Positions 40,734 to 47,396 are shown, counted from the first letter of the stretch. The stretch: DNA of 47,396 nt from an uncultured Gammaproteobacteria bacterium (GCA_964358845.1 CAYHQC010000001.1:1-47396); one strand, 5' to 3'. Notes: generated by a model from the letters alone, not told the origin. Made by a program: numbers and translations.

Positions 40734-42785
40734 TTAATCTGCTATAGACTCAATTTTACTCTCTTTTGTAGCTTCTCTCAATAGGGGAATTGTCGAAAGA
40801 TCAATTGGTTTGGCAAAAAGGAGTTCTACTTCTGTTTTTGCCGCATGGACGAGGGCTGAATCGGTGAAGCTGGCAATTTTTAGGTCCGGCAAGCCATGTT
40901 GGCGTGTGCCAAAGAGTTGGCCGGGTCCTCTCAGTGAGAGATCTAATTGCGCAAGCTCCGGTCCACTGTGGGTGGTCTCTAAAGCCTTTAGCCGTTTTAT
41001 CGCGAGCTCTGAAACATTTTCTGTAAAAAGTAAACAGTACGAGGAAAGATCACTGCGCCCAACACGGCCGCGAAGTTGGTGAAGTTGAGATAATCCAAAT
41101 CGGTCCGCAGCTTCTATAACCATAATAGTAGCTGTGGGTATATCTATCCCTACTTCGACAACTGGGGTAGTGACAAGTATATCCAATTTTTGTAATCGAA
41201 AATCTTTTAGGAGCATATCTTTTTCCTTGGGTTTTAAACGACCATGGAGAAGTCCCACACGAAAGTTTTTAAATTCGTAAGCTTTTAACCGTTCGTATTC
41301 TTGGGTTGCGGCTTTCACCGTTATGAGTGTATCGGATTCCTCGATAAGGGGGCAGACGATAAAGCTTTGTGTGTGATGAGTTTTTAGTTCTTTTCGTATC
41401 CATTCATAGGCTGCTTTGCGCTTTTCTTCTGGTACGACCCATGTGCTAATTTTTTTTCGGCCTTTTGGCATGGTAAGAAGGGTAGAAAGATCCATTTCGC
41501 CGTAGACGACTCGGGCAAGGGTACGAGGGATTGGAGTGGCGGTCATCGTCAGAAGATGAGGGGTGGATGTATTCTTTTTCGCGTTTAAGAGAATGTTTCG
41601 TTGTGTGACCCCGAAGCGCTGTTGCTCATCTATGACAACCAGACCGACATTTTGAATAGTTTCCGAATCGGAAAGAAGAGCGTGCGTGCCTATGGTGATA
41701 TGGGCATCCTCTTTGTCGTCATAATTTTTTTGTTCTTTTTTCTGACCTGTTATTAAACGAATTCGAATTGGCAGAGTGTGAAATATTTTTGTGATGGTGA
41801 GGTAATGTTGTGTCGCCAGTATTTGCGTCGGCGCCATAAGAATGGATGGAAACCCGCTTTGGTGGCTAATGTACATAGCAATTGTTGCTACCACAGTTTT
41901 TCCTGATCCTACATCTCCTTCCAATAGCCGATTCATCGACGTAGATTTGGCTACATCGCTTCGAATTTCTTTGATTGAGAGTAGCTGATCGTCTGTTAAA
42001 GTAAAAGGAAGTGAGGTAATAATTGCTTCGAGGGAATCATCGTTTATCGCAAGTACTGGTGCGTGGACAAGGCTTTCTCGTTGTTTTTTTCTGTACGCTG
42101 ATTTCGCGATCAAAAGAAACATTTCATCAAATGCCAATCGTTTTTTGCTCTCATATGCGTCGGAGAGCATTGAAGGGAAATGGACGTTTTGTAATGCAAT
42201 TGTTAGCGGTATGAGTTTTTGGCGGGTAAGAATCGTTTGTGGAAGTGATTCTTCTACTTTGGGTATGCACGTTTGTAAAATGAAGTTTATTCGTCCGCGG
42301 ATCCACTTGGATGTGACACCCGCGGTTTCAGGATACACCGGCACAAGTCTTCCTGTGTGTAAATGCGCGTCAATGCCGTCTGTACGTTCATAGACTGGTG
42401 ACTCGAGTACCAGCGTGTGACCAAACCAATTGGCTTTGCCGGATACTGCGATTTTCATAGCGGGCTTGAGTATTTTGGTTAGAAAGATTTGGTTGTACCA
42501 TAAACATTCGATGTGCCCTGTATCATCTGAGAGTACTGCCTTTTGCATCGGTTTTCCTGATTTGGTGAAAATATTGACGATTGACTCAATAGTGCCGGTG
42601 GTCGTCACTATTTCATTTGGTCGTATGCTACTGATTTTTGCGGTATGTGAAAAATCATCGTAGCGAAATGGGATGTGATAGAGAAGATCAAAAACGGTGT
42701 ATATTCCTAGCTTCTCTAATTTTTGGGCCATCATTGGTCCCACGCGCGGGACATATTGGGCTGGAGATGAGAGTTCTAGTTGCAT
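40734..42785 (-). CDS. recG: ATP-dependent DNA helicase RecG
   Basis: Wedge/OB N-terminal domain, FTLTDDQ, GDVGSGKT (Walker A), DEQQRFGV (DEQH-type box), QLHQLRGRVGR. Confidence 0.93.
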   Translation of the reverse strand: MQLELSSPAQYVPRVGPMMAQKLEKLGIYTVFDLLYHIPFRYDDFSHTAKISSIRPNEIVTTTGTIESIVNIFTKSGKPMQKAVLSDDTGHIECLWYNQIFLTKILKPAMKIAVSGKANWFGHTLVLESPVYERTDGIDAHLHTGRLVPVYPETAGVTSKWIRGRINFILQTCIPKVEESLPQTILTRQKLIPLTIALQNVHFPSMLSDAYESKKRLAFDEMFLLIAKSAYRKKQRESLVHAPVLAINDDSLEAIITSLPFTLTDDQLLSIKEIRSDVAKSTSMNRLLEGDVGSGKTVVATIAMYISHQSGFPSILMAPTQILATQHYLTITKIFHTLPIRIRLITGQKKEQKNYDDKEDAHITIGTHALLSDSETIQNVGLVVIDEQQRFGVTQRNILLNAKKNTSTPHLLTMTATPIPRTLARVVYGEMDLSTLLTMPKGRKKISTWVVPEEKRKAAYEWIRKELKTHHTQSFIVCPLIEESDTLITVKAATQEYERLKAYEFKNFRVGLLHGRLKPKEKDMLLKDFRLQKLDILVTTPVVEVGIDIPTATIMVIEAADRFGLSQLHQLRGRVGRSDLSSYCLLFTENVSELAIKRLKALETTHSGPELAQLDLSLRGPGQLFGTRQHGLPDLKIASFTDSALVHAAKTEVELLFAKPIDLSTIPLLREATKESKIESIAD

Positions 42786-42833
42786 GTGTAATCATATTGT
42801 ATCTTCGAATAGAACTTATTTCTACTAGTTTAT

Positions 42834-43074: not shown

Positions 43075-44271
43075 TCATTGTAGTTTGATTGAGACAAATT
43101 TTTTCTTCCCTATTCTGACCATACTGCCATCTATGACCACTGATGATGCGGTGGCTTCTTCATTATCAATTTCTATTGCCTTTTGGTCAAGCAGGCGTTT
43201 GACCTCGGATTTGCTCGAAACAGTTCCGCTTGAGACTAGTACATCAATAATATTAAGAGATGCTATTGGATCCACGGATACTTGTTGTGCATCATCGGCT
43301 GTTGCAGCATTTCCTTTTTGGTGTATTGATTCAAACGCAACTTGCGCTTTTTCTGCATTTGCTTCGGAGTTAAATGCTCTGGTAAGTTCAAATGCTAATC
43401 TTTTTTTCCAAACCATCGGATTATCCCCTGCTTTCATTTTGTCTTTCATGGTTTCAATCTCATTCATCGGCATATCAGTAAGAAGCGTAAAACACGGAAT
43501 AATCGCATCATCTCCTAATGACATGATTTTGCCATAGAAATCCGTTGGTTCATCAGTAAGCCCAATAACATTGTTTTCAGTTTTTCCAATTTTAACTCCC
43601 TTAGCATCAGCAAGAAGCGGCACGGTCATGACAAATTTTTCTTTATTCAGCATGTTTTTCACAAGCGTTCTGCCCGCCAACATATTAAATGTTTGATCAC
43701 TGCCTCCGAGTTCTAGATTTACTTGCATAGCGACAGAATCGTATCCCTGAAGCAGCGGATATAAGAATTCCCGAAGGTTAATTGGGTCTCCTGCTTTCAT
43801 ACGAACCTGATACATATCGCGCTCTATCATTTGTTGTACGGTGAAGTTTTGTGCGATGTTTAGCATATCTTCAAGTTTTAATTTCGTCAGCCAGTCGCCG
43901 TTGTAGAGAATTTCTACTGGATTTTCTCCTTCAAAACGGACGATTTTAGAAGCCTGCAGTAAGTATGCTTTCGCATTATCGCGCAATTCTTCACCGGACA
44001 TAAATTTTCCACGAGCTTTCATTTTACCGGATGGATCACCCGCAAGTCCTGTACCATCACCGACTAAAAATATTACTTTGTGTCCTAAATCTTGCCACTG
44101 ACGTAATTTTCGAAATCCCACGGCATGTCCGATATGAAGTTGTGTTCCCGTCGGATCAAACCCTTGGTAGAGTTTTAACTTTTTTCCACTGCGAAGTACT
44201 GTCTCCAATGCTTCTTTGGTAGGATATATCGTATCAACTCCACGTGTAAGTAATACATCGATCTCATCCAT
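43075..44271 (-). CDS. tyrS: Tyrosyl-tRNA synthetase, full length with C-terminal S4-like domain
   Basis: GFDPTGTQLHIGHAV (HIGH), GDGTGLAGDPSGK, ELGGSDQTFN, KIGKTE (KFGKT-type KMSKS), C-terminal SKSEVKRLLDQKAIEID. Confidence 0.92.
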   Translation of the reverse strand: MDEIDVLLTRGVDTIYPTKEALETVLRSGKKLKLYQGFDPTGTQLHIGHAVGFRKLRQWQDLGHKVIFLVGDGTGLAGDPSGKMKARGKFMSGEELRDNAKAYLLQASKIVRFEGENPVEILYNGDWLTKLKLEDMLNIAQNFTVQQMIERDMYQVRMKAGDPINLREFLYPLLQGYDSVAMQVNLELGGSDQTFNMLAGRTLVKNMLNKEKFVMTVPLLADAKGVKIGKTENNVIGLTDEPTDFYGKIMSLGDDAIIPCFTLLTDMPMNEIETMKDKMKAGDNPMVWKKRLAFELTRAFNSEANAEKAQVAFESIHQKGNAATADDAQQVSVDPIASLNIIDVLVSSGTVSSKSEVKRLLDQKAIEIDNEEATASSVVIDGSMVRIGKKKFVSIKLQ

Positions 44272-44285
44272 ATAGATATTTTACA

Positions 44286-45236
44286 CTATATCATATTTTT
44301 GAGTTGAGGATGCCCGTTTATAAACATTGTTTCAGCCAACATAGCTTTTTGCATTCCGTGAACATCAGAAACTATGATACGTGCCAATAGTCGTTTGGCC
44401 GTCAACGGATGCAGTGTATTGATGACACCATCATCCGTTGTTGTACACAGCTTAAAGAATATTGCGATATCTGTATCATGGATTTTCATAATTTTATTAA
44501 ACTGTGTAGCAGGATCCTCTTCCATGCCGATGAAGTTGTCGGCGCTTTTGCTCATTTTTTCTGCTCCATCAGTGCCAGGTAAGTACTCAAGAAGCAGCGC
44601 CTCCTCTGGGGGAAGGCCGAATTTTTCCATGACCTGACGAGTCATAAGAAAATTAAATTTCTGATCAGGACCACCAAGCTCAATGTCTGCTTTGATCGCT
44701 ACACTGTCAAACGCCATAAGGAGCGTGTAGAACATTTCGTGGAATCCTAATGGTTTTCCAAGTTTTTCGCGCATGCGAAACGTTTCATGCCGCATGAGTT
44801 GTTCTTTTGTAACCGTTGCCATTAATCGGATAGTTTGTTCAAGTGTGAGTGTGTTGTACCATTCGCTTTGAAAATGTACTTCAGTTTTTTCTATATCAAT
44901 GAATTTGGCAGCAAAACTTGTGAACCGCTTCGCATTTTCTTGTGTTTGAGCAAGAGTGAGCATATTTCGCGTATCACTTTTTCCTACAGGATCCCCAATT
45001 TGCGCAGTGAAATCTCCGATGATAAATACGGCAGTGTGACCCATATTTTGAAATTCACGCAATTTTCGAAGTGGCACGGTATGCCCCAAGTGAAAAGATG
45101 TCGCCGTTGGATCTATACCATATTTGATTCGAAGTGGTGTGTTGGCTGATAGCTTCTTTATCATTTCGTTTTTTTCAATAACCTCACACACACCATGAGT
45201 CAGTAATTTGTTAATAGCGTCAGTTTGATTGTTCAT
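44286..45236 (-). CDS. TyrRS paralog: catalytic core with intact HLGH and KMSKS, no C-terminal S4 domain
   Basis: YGIDPTATSFHLGHTV, IIGDFTAQIGDPVGKS, ELGGPDQKFN, KMSKS. 316 aa versus 398 aa for the neighbouring tyrS. Confidence 0.8.
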   Translation of the reverse strand: MNNQTDAINKLLTHGVCEVIEKNEMIKKLSANTPLRIKYGIDPTATSFHLGHTVPLRKLREFQNMGHTAVFIIGDFTAQIGDPVGKSDTRNMLTLAQTQENAKRFTSFAAKFIDIEKTEVHFQSEWYNTLTLEQTIRLMATVTKEQLMRHETFRMREKLGKPLGFHEMFYTLLMAFDSVAIKADIELGGPDQKFNFLMTRQVMEKFGLPPEEALLLEYLPGTDGAEKMSKSADNFIGMEEDPATQFNKIMKIHDTDIAIFFKLCTTTDDGVINTLHPLTAKRLLARIIVSDVHGMQKAMLAETMFINGHPQLKNMI

Positions 45237-45237
45237 A

Positions 45238-46125
45238 TTACCTCCTTTTGAAAATAGTATTTATAATGTGTTGAGCTTTATTTGGAATTGAACGTGATGA
45301 TATGGATCCACATTGTTTTTCAAATGCGCGGGCAATTGTCGCGATATGTTTTGTGGTACCACCGAAATGTGGATCATTCCAGCCGCATAACGCTCGCGCA
45401 AACTTTTCTAAAGCGTTTTCGTGCGGATCTAAGAGCAATCGCGTCTCACCATCGATTGAAATGTATGGTGATACTTTTTGTCGATGTTTATCAAAGGTGC
45501 GTCCAGACTTCGTATGCAAAAATGCTACTGGTATCGCTATATGTTTTTTGAGCTCTGTGTCGAAAAAACGTTCATCATGACCAGACGGCTCAGGAGAACT
45601 ATCAATAGTCCAGCCAAGTTTTATGCCAAGATTATGATGTTCTTTGAGCCATAAAATATCTGCAAGCTCATGTCGTAAGTACTGATTGTCCATAGCGGGA
45701 AGTGATGTAAGTATATTTTGAAAAGATGGATTGGATGATATCGTCGAATGAACAATAATTCGAAAATTTACTAAATGTAACGTATGGATAATTTTGTTAC
45801 ATAATTGCTTCGTGCGATCGGTAAGGTTTATTATTAGTTCTTCGGACATAAATGAGTTTGTGCGTGCGTGTGAATCTGCAATAAGAATAATGACTTCGGA
45901 TAAGCCAAAAAATTGTTTCAGCCTTTCTGCGATGAGAAAGAAGCTTAGAATATCAAATGGTATAGCTATTGCGGGTTTTTTATCAGTGCATAGTCCTACA
46001 CCAAAAAATATGCTTTTTTTTTGAAATGTTGAGGCATCAAACGTATTGAGCGCCACGCAACAAGACGCCGCTTCCAAGAGTGGTTCATTGTGTATGAACG
46101 TATGTACTTCATGTTGTGTAATCAT
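45238..46125 (-). CDS. Hypothetical protein (paralog B), possibly a divergent class Ic aaRS-like Rossmann fold lacking HIGH and KMSKS
   Basis: Start reset to ATG 46125 because the ORF-track extension runs through the tRNA. Shares FFGVG, ILIADSHA, GIKLGW, HDERFFD and SPYI with ORF 46220-47080. Confidence 0.6.
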   Translation of the reverse strand: MITQHEVHTFIHNEPLLEAASCCVALNTFDASTFQKKSIFFGVGLCTDKKPAIAIPFDILSFFLIAERLKQFFGLSEVIILIADSHARTNSFMSEELIINLTDRTKQLCNKIIHTLHLVNFRIIVHSTISSNPSFQNILTSLPAMDNQYLRHELADILWLKEHHNLGIKLGWTIDSSPEPSGHDERFFDTELKKHIAIPVAFLHTKSGRTFDKHRQKVSPYISIDGETRLLLDPHENALEKFARALCGWNDPHFGGTTKHIATIARAFEKQCGSISSRSIPNKAQHIINTIFKRR

Positions 46126-46126
46126 A

Positions 46127-46216
46127 GGTGCGGAGAGAGGGATTTGAACCCCCGAAGCGTCTTTTGAACGCAACAGATTTACAGTCTGTTCCAATTAGCC
46201 TCTCTGGCATCTCCGC
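46127..46216 (-). tRNA. tRNA-Tyr (anticodon GTA), bacterial class II type with long variable arm
   Basis: Hand-folded. 7-bp acceptor GCGGAGA/TCTCCGC, anticodon arm ACAGA-CTGTAAA-TCTGT, variable arm GCGT-loop-ACGC, T arm GGGGG-TTCAAAT-CCCTC, discriminator A, G1:C72. Genomic CC follows but the final A is not encoded. Confidence 0.9.
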
Positions 46217-46219
46217 ATA

Positions 46220-47080
46220 TTATTTCGCACATGCATCTACAATTTTTTGAATTTGCTTGAACGGATCAACTCCTCTTGGTGACCTCCCTTCTAATCGCGA
46301 CACGCTATTTCCTAGATTTACGAGTAGATTATGAAAATCATTTCCCATTGCGATTTCTTTTAATCTTTTTCGTACATCAGGAATTGCTTGGCCTAATGCA
46401 AAGTCCGGCGACCCAATGTATGGGGGAGCGAGATGGTGATTACCAAGAATGTCCTTGGTAGTTTTCATCCCTTCAAGGGTGCGTATGAAACCCATATGTT
46501 TTTTCAGATTGGGATTATCGTTTCTTGCGAACTGATCGAAATCTCTTTCATCCCATCGCAAGGGACCGATAATTGGTTTTTTCCGTGACTGCCAGCCGAC
46601 TTTGACTCCCACTTTGAGCACCGTTCGTGCATGTTCCATGTCATCGGCTTCCATTTCTGGATAGCTTGTCCGTGCGCTCATTTGCCACTGTGATGCATTT
46701 GATGACTGGATGATACGTATATCCGGCTCACCTAATGCTGAAAATAGTTTTTGTATGACCTCTGTAGCTTTATTGGCACTTTTTCTAATATTTTCTGTTT
46801 GACAGATATCATTGGCAAATCGCACTGCATGACCGTCTGCAATTAATACATTAATTTTTGAAGAAGCTCCTTGATGTTGTGCAGTCCGCGCAGTTTCGAT
46901 CGCTGTGACGGCCATGCCAATGACTCCAATGCCTATATCTGTGTTTACCATCCCTTTACGTTGTGCAACACCGATGCCCATAAAAACATTCGTGCCCTCA
47001 CCCTCTCCTTGCGGTGGTTGGATAGCAGCAATGATATTTCTATGCTTCTTTTCTACTTCGTGTAATATTTCTCTAATCAT
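46220..47080 (-). CDS. Hypothetical protein (paralog A of 45238-46125), possibly class Ic aaRS-like
   Basis: FMGIGV, NVLIADGHAV, GVKVGW, WDERDFD and APPYI are collinear with paralog B. The stop lies 3 nt before the tRNA 5' end. Confidence 0.6.
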   Translation of the reverse strand: MIREILHEVEKKHRNIIAAIQPPQGEGEGTNVFMGIGVAQRKGMVNTDIGIGVIGMAVTAIETARTAQHQGASSKINVLIADGHAVRFANDICQTENIRKSANKATEVIQKLFSALGEPDIRIIQSSNASQWQMSARTSYPEMEADDMEHARTVLKVGVKVGWQSRKKPIIGPLRWDERDFDQFARNDNPNLKKHMGFIRTLEGMKTTKDILGNHHLAPPYIGSPDFALGQAIPDVRKRLKEIAMGNDFHNLLVNLGNSVSRLEGRSPRGVDPFKQIQKIVDACAK

Positions 47081-47082
47081 AT

Positions 47083-47289
47083 TTAACCCTCCGAAAAATC
47101 ATCATGCCATTTTCTGCGAACGGCACTTTTTGGATCTGTATCTGGTATTTTTTTAGTTTCATCCTTTTCTATTTTTGGCTTCTCAACCATAAATACACTT
47201 GTCCCCAAAGACGGTGGCATGATATTGCCTTGCATGTCTCGAAGGTTTTCGCGTATAAATTCTAATGTTCCCTTAATTTTTTCTAACAT
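47083..47289 (-). CDS. Small 68-aa ORF, first cistron after the T-box leader
   Basis: AGGAGG at 47301-47306 (minus strand), 11 nt before the ATG at 47289. Its stop is 2 nt before the start of paralog A. No recognisable motif. Confidence 0.45.
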   Translation of the reverse strand: MLEKIKGTLEFIRENLRDMQGNIMPPSLGTSVFMVEKPKIEKDETKKIPDTDPKSAVRRKWHDDFSEG

Positions 47290-47311
47290 AATAATTTTCA
47301 CCTCCTTTCAA

Positions 47312-47369
47312 ACAAAAAAACGCCCGTGCAAGTCGCCCAGAAAATTTCTGAGTAACCTGCAAGGGCGTT
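47312..47369 (-). terminator. Intrinsic terminator of the T-box leader
   Basis: Minus strand: AACGCCCTTGCAGG, loop, CTTGCACGGGCGTT, then TTTTTTT. About 13 bp of stem with one mismatch. Confidence 0.75.
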
Positions 47370-47396
47370 CGATAAAGAACACGGTACCACCTTGTT
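47312..47396 (-). promoter_or_regulatory. T-box riboswitch, 3' portion only (T-box sequence, antiterminator, terminator); the specifier loop lies beyond the window edge
   Basis: Minus strand AACAAGGUGGUACCGUG matches the conserved T-box motif. The antiterminator folds as CAAGG, 7-nt bulge UGGUACC, GUGUUC, UUUAUC, GAACGC, CCUUG. Its 3' arm is shared with the terminator 5' arm. Confidence 0.8.

Follow-up and report, generated by a model that had tools for sequence, protein, structure and literature searches.

The locus described here is a compact group of genes concerned with tyrosine and its tRNA, located on the minus strand of a 47,396-nucleotide (nt) stretch of DNA entered as an uncultured Gammaproteobacteria bacterium (GCA_964358845.1, CAYHQC010000001.1:1-47396) and called the window throughout; the host is a groundwater ultra-small bacterium of the Patescibacteria (Gottesmanbacteria). 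Six units follow one another on this strand: a small open reading frame (ORF) of 68 amino acids (aa) at 47289-47083, paralog A (286 aa, 47080-46220), a tRNA-Tyr(GTA) gene (46216-46127), paralog B (295 aa when counted from the ATG that abuts the tRNA, 46125-45238), a gene resembling tyrosyl-tRNA synthetase (TyrRS) without an S4 domain (316 aa, 45236-44286; truncated TyrRS below) and a full-length TyrRS gene (398 aa, 44271-43075). The end of a T-box leader precedes them. A preliminary description, drawn up from the sequence alone, had named these six units, their tight packing, the paralogy of A and B and the pairing of a full TyrRS with a TyrRS-like gene lacking S4. All four points are confirmed: the units by the ORF list, ARAGORN and Rfam (tRNA model, 54.7 bits), the packing by gaps of 2, 3, 1, 1 and 14 nt in order, the paralogy by BLASTP (26% identity, E=3e-9) and the synthetase genes by TIGR00234 (333 and 238.5 bits). 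What appears to be new at this locus is a T-box tyrS operon extended by the gene of the tRNA that it is predicted to sense and by a new synthetase-derived family. A literature search of incomplete coverage, and hence giving absence of evidence only, turned up no account of T-boxes in the Candidate Phyla Radiation, of tRNA genes under T-box control or of the A and B paralogs.

The layout is not peculiar to one assembly, and in this too the preliminary description is supported, by many genomes and by independent assemblies. The core order T-box, tRNA-Tyr, B, TyrRS and RecG recurs in 18 related Patescibacteria loci (other contigs and loci are numbered here with the prefix L). Among species-representative genomes, a scan yielded 17 loci. 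In all 15 of these for which upstream DNA is available, a tRNA-Tyr(GTA) gene precedes B, in 14 of them immediately, and the T-box lies further upstream of the tRNA. In the exception, L011, the interval between tRNA and B holds two genes, a GH10 glycosidase gene and an ORF of 604 aa. The core unit is embedded in housekeeping synteny, with PheRS and PBP upstream and RecG, NusB, RNase III and S16 downstream, and most loci carry a single TyrRS. The same arrangement as in the window was seen in separate assemblies L002-L005 (Hainich groundwater, other samples), which rules out misassembly.

The small ORF and A appear as a pair in the window, L010 and L025-27, and L008 has a divergent version of the pair. 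The small ORF is the partner of paralog A, and homologous small ORFs stand immediately 5' of A-type genes in L010, L008 and L026; the window protein ends in ...KWHDDFSEG and the homologues in ...SEFQEG (L010), ...SEFEEG (L008) and ...EDFQEG (L026), so that (D/E)F-x-EG is the common motif. A GGAGG ribosome-binding site stands in front of the small ORF, A and the truncated TyrRS, that of the small ORF being strong (AGGAGGTG).

The tyrosine T-box leader

T-boxes are sensors of tRNA charging that control genes for synthetases, biosynthesis and transport. The preliminary description had placed a T-box at the end of the contig, and expected stem I and a tyrosine specifier upstream and a UGGU matching the discriminator A of the embedded tRNA-Tyr; each of these elements was found. 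The window is the entire NCBI contig and ends within the leader, which therefore cannot be extended in that assembly, and only the last ~85 nt of the T-box are present. This 3' part aligns with positions 183-219 of the Rfam T-box model RF00230 at 47396-47358 on the minus strand (19.2 bits, 5' end cut) and comprises the 3' side of the antiterminator and the conserved T-box sequence, AGGUGGUACC, in which the UGGU bulge lies. It overlaps an intrinsic terminator at 47367-47314, formed by a long hairpin (47367-47321) and a run of seven U (47320-47314).

Stem I and the UAC specifier lie past the contig end and were supplied by contig L001, which is 99% identical to the window across an overlap of 337 nt and carries the full-length T-box at L001:1662-1955 (77.2 bits, E=5.3e-17). 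The specifier-loop strand in L001 reads GAAAUACC and is followed by the CUCC stem, and its specifier is UAC (Tyr). This UAC stands at the '+0' position of the TBDB rule, in which the specifier comprises nucleotides 2-4 from the 3' end of the bulge, and 99% of the Tyr T-boxes in TBDB use UAC (PMC7778990). In 15 of the 16 loci with enough upstream DNA, the strand has the form GAA(N)UAC(C/U), with UAC kept and the preceding base variable. Orthologous leaders were scored in 15 further loci at 43-120 bits, four of them above the Rfam gathering score (119.9, 107.2, 95.4 and 94.3 bits) and the rest at 43-87 bits. The terminator hairpin is present in the minimum-free-energy fold of the L001 leader. 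Among 14 orthologous leaders, 13 of the 21 pairs of the terminator helix are maintained by compensatory changes on both sides, and all 14 leaders have a U-run after the helix.

The leader resembles the B. subtilis-type tyrS T-box (RF00230), which also has stem I with a UAC specifier, a UGGN bulge that pairs with the discriminator base of the tRNA, an antiterminator and a terminator that exclude each other, and a TyrRS gene downstream. It differs in that the regulated transcript would hold the tRNA-Tyr gene, so that the switch would control its own ligand, in that the operon adds three kinds of TyrRS-derived paralogs, and in that the host belongs to the Patescibacteria (Gottesmanbacteria) and not to the Firmicutes, with several leaders scoring under the gathering score.

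Two further observations were made on the leaders. Three independent contigs end at an identical base just before AACAAGGTGGTACC (window 47396 and position 1 of L002 and L003), a coincidence that points to a breakpoint in the assemblies caused by a repeat or by strain variation. Upstream of the Tyr operon, extra weak T-box matches were seen on the other strand at L014:1633-1803 and L016:3671-3791 (minus strand; 43 and 40 bits, respectively), and presumably serve another gene.

The tRNA-Tyr gene and its junction with B

The tRNA-Tyr has a GUA anticodon, a long variable arm, a G1-C72 pair and discriminator base A73, to which the UGGU bulge is complementary. In the window its 3' end is encoded as ACC-U with the AUG of B directly after it, which puts the start codon of B 3 nt past A73; no ribosome-binding site precedes B. 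Among the 18 junctions examined (window included), the AUG of B lies 2-3 nt 3' of the discriminator base in 14; the junction has the form A73-C(C)-U-AUG, and in L018 it is ACCA-UG. Because the AUG is so close to A73 and B has no ribosome-binding site, 3' processing of the tRNA would release a leaderless B-TyrRS message, and the mRNA of B is probably leaderless after excision of the tRNA.

In mitochondrial tRNA punctuation, and in bacterial co-transcripts such as thrU-tyrU-glyT-thrT-tufB, excision of an embedded tRNA defines mRNA ends and can leave a leaderless mRNA. The present junction differs from tRNA punctuation in that it occurs in a bacterium, in that the AUG 2-3 nt past the discriminator base is conserved across species, and in that the tRNA lies downstream of a riboswitch sensing that same tRNA.

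The distance between terminator and tRNA bears on the control of the tRNA gene itself. In eight loci the terminator U-run and the start of the tRNA are 1-17 nt apart, a spacing that excludes a separate promoter and thus argues that the T-box gates transcription of the tRNA it senses.

Some observations concern the annotation and variation of this region. At 46125-46194 (minus strand), the public gene call for B (318 aa) begins at a TTG within the tRNA-Tyr gene while the conserved start is the ATG at 46125, and several database homologues of B (315-328 aa) are over-extended likewise. L008:2433-3895 carries two tRNA-Tyr(GTA) genes in one operon, with a small ORF of 103 aa and a highly divergent A-like gene of 327 aa between them. 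When L001:3094-4054 is set against window positions 46216-45238, identity is 99-100% across the T-box, small ORF, A and tRNA, but B of L001 is just 49% identical to that of the window, and its TyrRS genes are ~70% identical and L013-like instead. Either the sequences recombined at the conserved tRNA or the low-coverage assembly is chimeric.

TyrRS-derived proteins of the operon

No Pfam or NCBIfam family was found for A or B, and neither matched PF00579, TIGR00234 or the Pfam family of cyclodipeptide synthases (CDPSs). Their relationship to TyrRS was recognized from predicted structure. The AlphaFold2 models are confident (pLDDT 93.9 for B and 86.2 for A), and both predicted structures have the TyrRS fold, a Rossmann domain followed by a C-terminal helical domain. 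In Foldseek, B matched the TyrRS of M. jannaschii (E=1e-8, TM 0.62, ~340 aligned columns) over the whole 306-aa enzyme; the best matches of A were human and M. jannaschii TyrRS (E~1e-6), with Leishmania TyrRS entries also matched, and the top 50 matches were all TyrRS or TrpRS.

The ATP signatures of the synthetases are absent from both proteins. The HIGH position is occupied by IPFDIL in B and IGIGVI in A, and the KMSKS position by (R/K)QKVSPY in B and LAPPY in A. The motifs of A are GxG, ADxHA, YPEMEADD, KVGW, DER and PPY, and invariant in both A and B are GxG, (D)xHA, Y-x3-E-x2-D, KxGW, DER and PY; LLADLHAYLN of archaeal enzymes may be compared. The B family comprises 56 clusters at 33-55% identity with 25 invariant columns, including D58, E67, H86, N147, Y149, E153, D156, K169, D184-E185-R186, R229 and H260. 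All clusters are unnamed or 'hypothetical', and the labelled ones are Candidatus Gottesmanbacteria. For A, a word-indexed homologue search with the single sequence gave one fragment and a two-sequence profile five clusters, and exhaustive phmmer gave only 26 hits among 1.84 billion representatives. The isoelectric points (median ~8) are compatible with RNA binding but not diagnostic.

The position of the tyrosine pocket was sought by profile alignment. With a joint A+B profile, hhalign placed Y/E/D on Y151/Q155/D158 and DER on E-Q173-R of M. jannaschii TyrRS at 34% probability, whereas with a B-only profile non-conserved columns fell on the tyrosine-binding residues. We prefer the register of the joint profile, by which the tyrosine pocket is likely, though not proven, to have been retained. 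The A+B profile against a bacterial TyrRS alignment was uninformative (18% probability), and the B-family profile against PDB sequences gave a weak match to yeast TyrRS at the ADLHA motif (E=1.2).

CDPSs such as AlbC and Rv2275 also have a class Ic aminoacyl-tRNA synthetase (aaRS)-like Rossmann fold nearest to archaeal TyrRS, have also lost the ATP motifs and are sometimes encoded near tRNA-related genes. They have Y-x3-E (Y178/E182 in AlbC) where TyrRS has Y-x3-Q, and the catalytic Ser (S37 of AlbC) lies in a GxS after strand beta-1 (PMC3105412). A and B likewise keep the strand beta-1 Gly and an invariant Y-x3-E, whose equivalence to AlbC Y178/E182 is drawn from the 34%-probability hhalign result and from PMC3105412. 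However, their invariant GxG puts Gly in place of the catalytic Ser, they appear to keep the Asp that reads the tyrosine hydroxyl, and at 270-340 aa they keep the C-terminal helical domain. Membership of the CDPSs was therefore rejected for A and B, which have no serine nucleophile and retain the helical domain.

Both synthetase genes of the window are clear members of the TyrRS family, 32% identical to each other. The full TyrRS (TIGR00234 at 333 bits, cut-off 113.8; PF00579 E=1.4e-63) is bacterial-type, with HIGH, KIGKT, YPLLQGYD and an S4-like C-terminal domain (weak matches to S4 and SYY_C-terminal). The truncated TyrRS (238.5 bits; PF00579 E=5.5e-62) keeps HLGH and KMSKS and is without the C-terminal S4-like tRNA-binding domain, and Met replaces the Gln that binds the tyrosine amino group (Y-x3-M, not Y-x3-Q-x2-D). 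It is present in five loci; the orthologues in L008, L010 and L013 are 68-73% identical and have Y-x3-M and the C-terminus HPQLKNMI in common. The substitution and the C-terminus hint at an altered substrate or an obligate partner.

A- and B-type genes also occur in other surroundings. L030:6625-7825 holds a lone A-type gene directly behind a Tyr T-box, the leader of which matches a hidden Markov model of the Gottesmanbacteria leaders (E=1.2e-33). In L031-33 a Tyr T-box (E=1.6e-26) is followed by a HisC-family aminotransferase and an A-type gene (L032:4563-7604), and in L025-27 the order is T-box, small ORF, A-type gene, HisC-like aminotransferase and TyrRS. No TyrRS or tRNA was found near the A-type genes of L030 and L031-33, and the 259-aa gene 3' of the A-type gene in L032 has no detectable relation to A or B. 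Since A-type genes thus follow Tyr T-boxes in at least three gene arrangements, the superfamily is firmly linked to tyrosine or tRNA-Tyr charging. Outside Patescibacteria, B-like genes recur in a cassette together with genes for a GCS2 carboxylate-amine ligase, an MR_MLE enzyme of the enolase superfamily and a C26-type glutamine amidotransferase (L006:3327-8941, L034:3613-7866 and L028:7001-8727); that of L006 has its own TyrRS, with a prephenate dehydratase next door.

Proposed regulation and function of the operon

Aminoacyl-tRNA synthetase paralogs that do not aminoacylate (HisZ, GluQ-RS/YadB, AsnA and the trypanosomatid pseudo-dimeric TyrRS) are duplicated synthetase cores that serve a related purpose and are often encoded in operons responding to the same amino acid; one half of the trypanosomatid enzyme lacks HIGH and KMSKS. 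To our knowledge none of them is a TyrRS paralog standing on its own, is directly linked to a tRNA gene or serves as a T-box target of this kind.

We consider it likely that the six units form a transcription-attenuation operon under a tyrosine-specific T-box, in which A and B act as set out below; the regulatory architecture is well supported. Uncharged tRNA-Tyr would pair with the UAC specifier through its GUA anticodon and with the UGGU bulge through its free ACCA end, and this pairing would stabilise the antiterminator and let RNA polymerase pass the terminator at 47367-47314. Readthrough would give one tRNA-mRNA transcript with the small ORF, A, tRNA-Tyr, B, truncated TyrRS and full TyrRS. 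Because the tRNA-Tyr gene sits behind the terminator, the riboswitch would control synthesis of its own ligand together with that of the charging enzyme. RNase P and 3' processing would then excise the tRNA, and the B-TyrRS message, left with a leader of 2-3 nt, would be translated as a leaderless mRNA.

A and B would be old TyrRS-derived proteins that kept the fold and lost HIGH and KMSKS. As the fold and the Y-x3-E-x2-D pocket motif are kept and the ATP signatures are gone, they may bind tyrosine or a tyrosyl group but make no tyrosyl-adenylate, and as members of the Tyr T-box regulon they would be produced when charging of tRNA-Tyr is poor. Three traits of B, namely its complete two-domain TyrRS architecture, its junction with the tRNA gene and the TyrRS gene next to it, lead us to suggest tentatively, giving the proposal somewhat less than even weight, that B handles tRNA-Tyr, with transfer or hydrolysis of a tyrosyl ester without ATP as the conceivable chemistry. 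In combination, a T-box gating its own tRNA, an excised tRNA making a leaderless message and a new class of TyrRS-derived, ATP-independent enzymes distinct from CDPSs, with a reaction of A and B on tyrosine or Tyr-tRNA-Tyr needed at low tRNA-Tyr charging, make up a joint reading that is plausible but falls a little short of probable.

If true, a T-box acting on the gene of the very tRNA it binds would form a new regulatory circuit, one that would show positive feedback, produce tRNA and synthetase together and couple the maturation of the mRNA to the processing of the tRNA. The A/B proteins are a conserved, unannotated family derived from synthetases and tied to tyrosine T-boxes; its reaction could add to the short list of functions that recruit aaRS cores, and its function could explain tyrosine management in the ultra-small, auxotrophic Patescibacteria.

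Several points weigh against parts of this interpretation. The L001 leader (77.2 bits) is under the RF00230 gathering score of 93 bits, and at the gathering threshold Rfam reported no T-box in the window or L001, these being recovered by E-value mode only. The tyrosine-pocket alignment is of low probability (34%), and the B-only profile gave a different register. The single transcript and the processing-dependent leaderless translation are read from spacing in the sequence. The B-like cassettes outside Patescibacteria (L006, L028 and L034) have no tRNA and no detected T-box, and A-type genes are repeatedly paired with a HisC-like aminotransferase; these GCS2, enolase, C26 and HisC-like neighbours point to free amino-acid chemistry rather than tRNA chemistry. 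The preliminary description had further supposed that TyrRS and tRNA-Tyr are an 'extra' supply dedicated to enzymes working outside translation, which is unlikely: given the housekeeping synteny and the usually single TyrRS per locus, they are most likely the cell's own housekeeping copies, as judged at the level of the locus. Use of Tyr-tRNA or Tyr-AMP by A and B, the other part of that supposition, is conceivable.

The first alternative follows from these neighbours. T-box regulons usually include genes for biosynthesis and uptake, and A and B could serve the supply or salvage of tyrosine, either as enzymes or as subunits that bind a ligand, acting on free tyrosine or one of its precursors and being induced with TyrRS at tyrosine shortage. 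The HisC-family aminotransferase adjoins A-type genes in two separate Tyr T-box operons (L025-27 and L031-33), a single A-type gene stands behind the Tyr T-box of L030, the cassette enzymes and an amino-acid ABC transporter lie beside B-like genes elsewhere, and two Gln-to-Glu changes seem to make the pocket more acidic. However, aaRS paralogs acting on free ligands have usually lost the C-terminal anticodon-binding domain, whereas B retains the helical domain that binds the anticodon in archaeal TyrRS; B is also joined to the tRNA gene in all Patescibacteria loci but L011, and the proposal fits no known enzyme chemistry. We regard it as less likely than not, although the aminotransferase and ligase contexts lend it real support.

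A and B might instead be non-catalytic partners or regulators, forming a mixed dimer with TyrRS or truncated TyrRS, comparable to the trypanosomatid pseudo-dimeric TyrRS, or serving as a tyrosine-sensing subunit as HisZ does for HisG. Loss of the catalytic signatures with retention of the fold would suit such a role, as would the proximity of B to TyrRS in Patescibacteria (in L011 a YerC/TrpR-like gene lies between), the single nucleotide between B and the truncated TyrRS, which suggests coupled translation, and the lack of a tRNA-binding domain in the latter. We think this unlikely, for the many invariant charged or polar residues of B resemble an active site more than an interface, A-type and B-like genes are found with no TyrRS nearby, and the truncated TyrRS is missing from most B-bearing genomes.

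It is also conceivable that the six units are not one transcript, the T-box controlling the small ORF and A only and the tRNA and downstream genes having their own promoter. The tRNA of the window lies 1.1 kb past the terminator, and a weak internal promoter is possible: there is a weak promoter-like match within the tRNA (46148-46121), and the promoter rules of the lineage are not established. Yet the gaps on either side of the tRNA are 1-3 nt, the U-run-to-tRNA spacing of the eight related loci leaves no room for a promoter, and the operon contains 7 promoter-like sites against 12.1 expected by chance, which is no excess; strong internal promoters would, by the preliminary description, have spoken against it. 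No terminator-like site was found between the units, save one weak candidate inside the small ORF. A split of this kind therefore seems quite improbable.

That A, B and the truncated TyrRS are functionless, as decaying tyrS duplicates or assembly artefacts, is scarcely credible despite the loss of canonical motifs and the mosaic, low-coverage contigs L001 and L004, since the ORFs are intact in independent assemblies, the B family holds its 25 invariant columns over 56 clusters at 33-55% identity, confidence in the AlphaFold models is high and the truncated-TyrRS orthologues are 68-73% identical with the same substitutions. Pseudogenes, contradicted by this strong conservation, and misassembly, contradicted by the independent assemblies, were both rejected.

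The operon of the window is followed by the gene for the RecG helicase (42785-40734, minus strand; assigned from ORF and synteny), which lies 289 nt downstream of the full TyrRS gene with a promoter-like site at 42824-42796 and is probably a separate transcription unit. No recognisable ribosome-binding site was found on the minus strand for the full TyrRS (44271-44300) or RecG (42785-42830) either, and a TACAAT box ends ~11 nt 5' of the ATG of RecG; on these grounds leaderless translation may be common in the host organism. In L011 the gene between B and TyrRS (YerC/TrpR-like) is at L011:5282-5815, and the TyrRS itself (L011:5874-7742) has at its N-terminus a B3/4 domain (PF03483, 67 bits), which shares its fold with the editing domain of PheRS.

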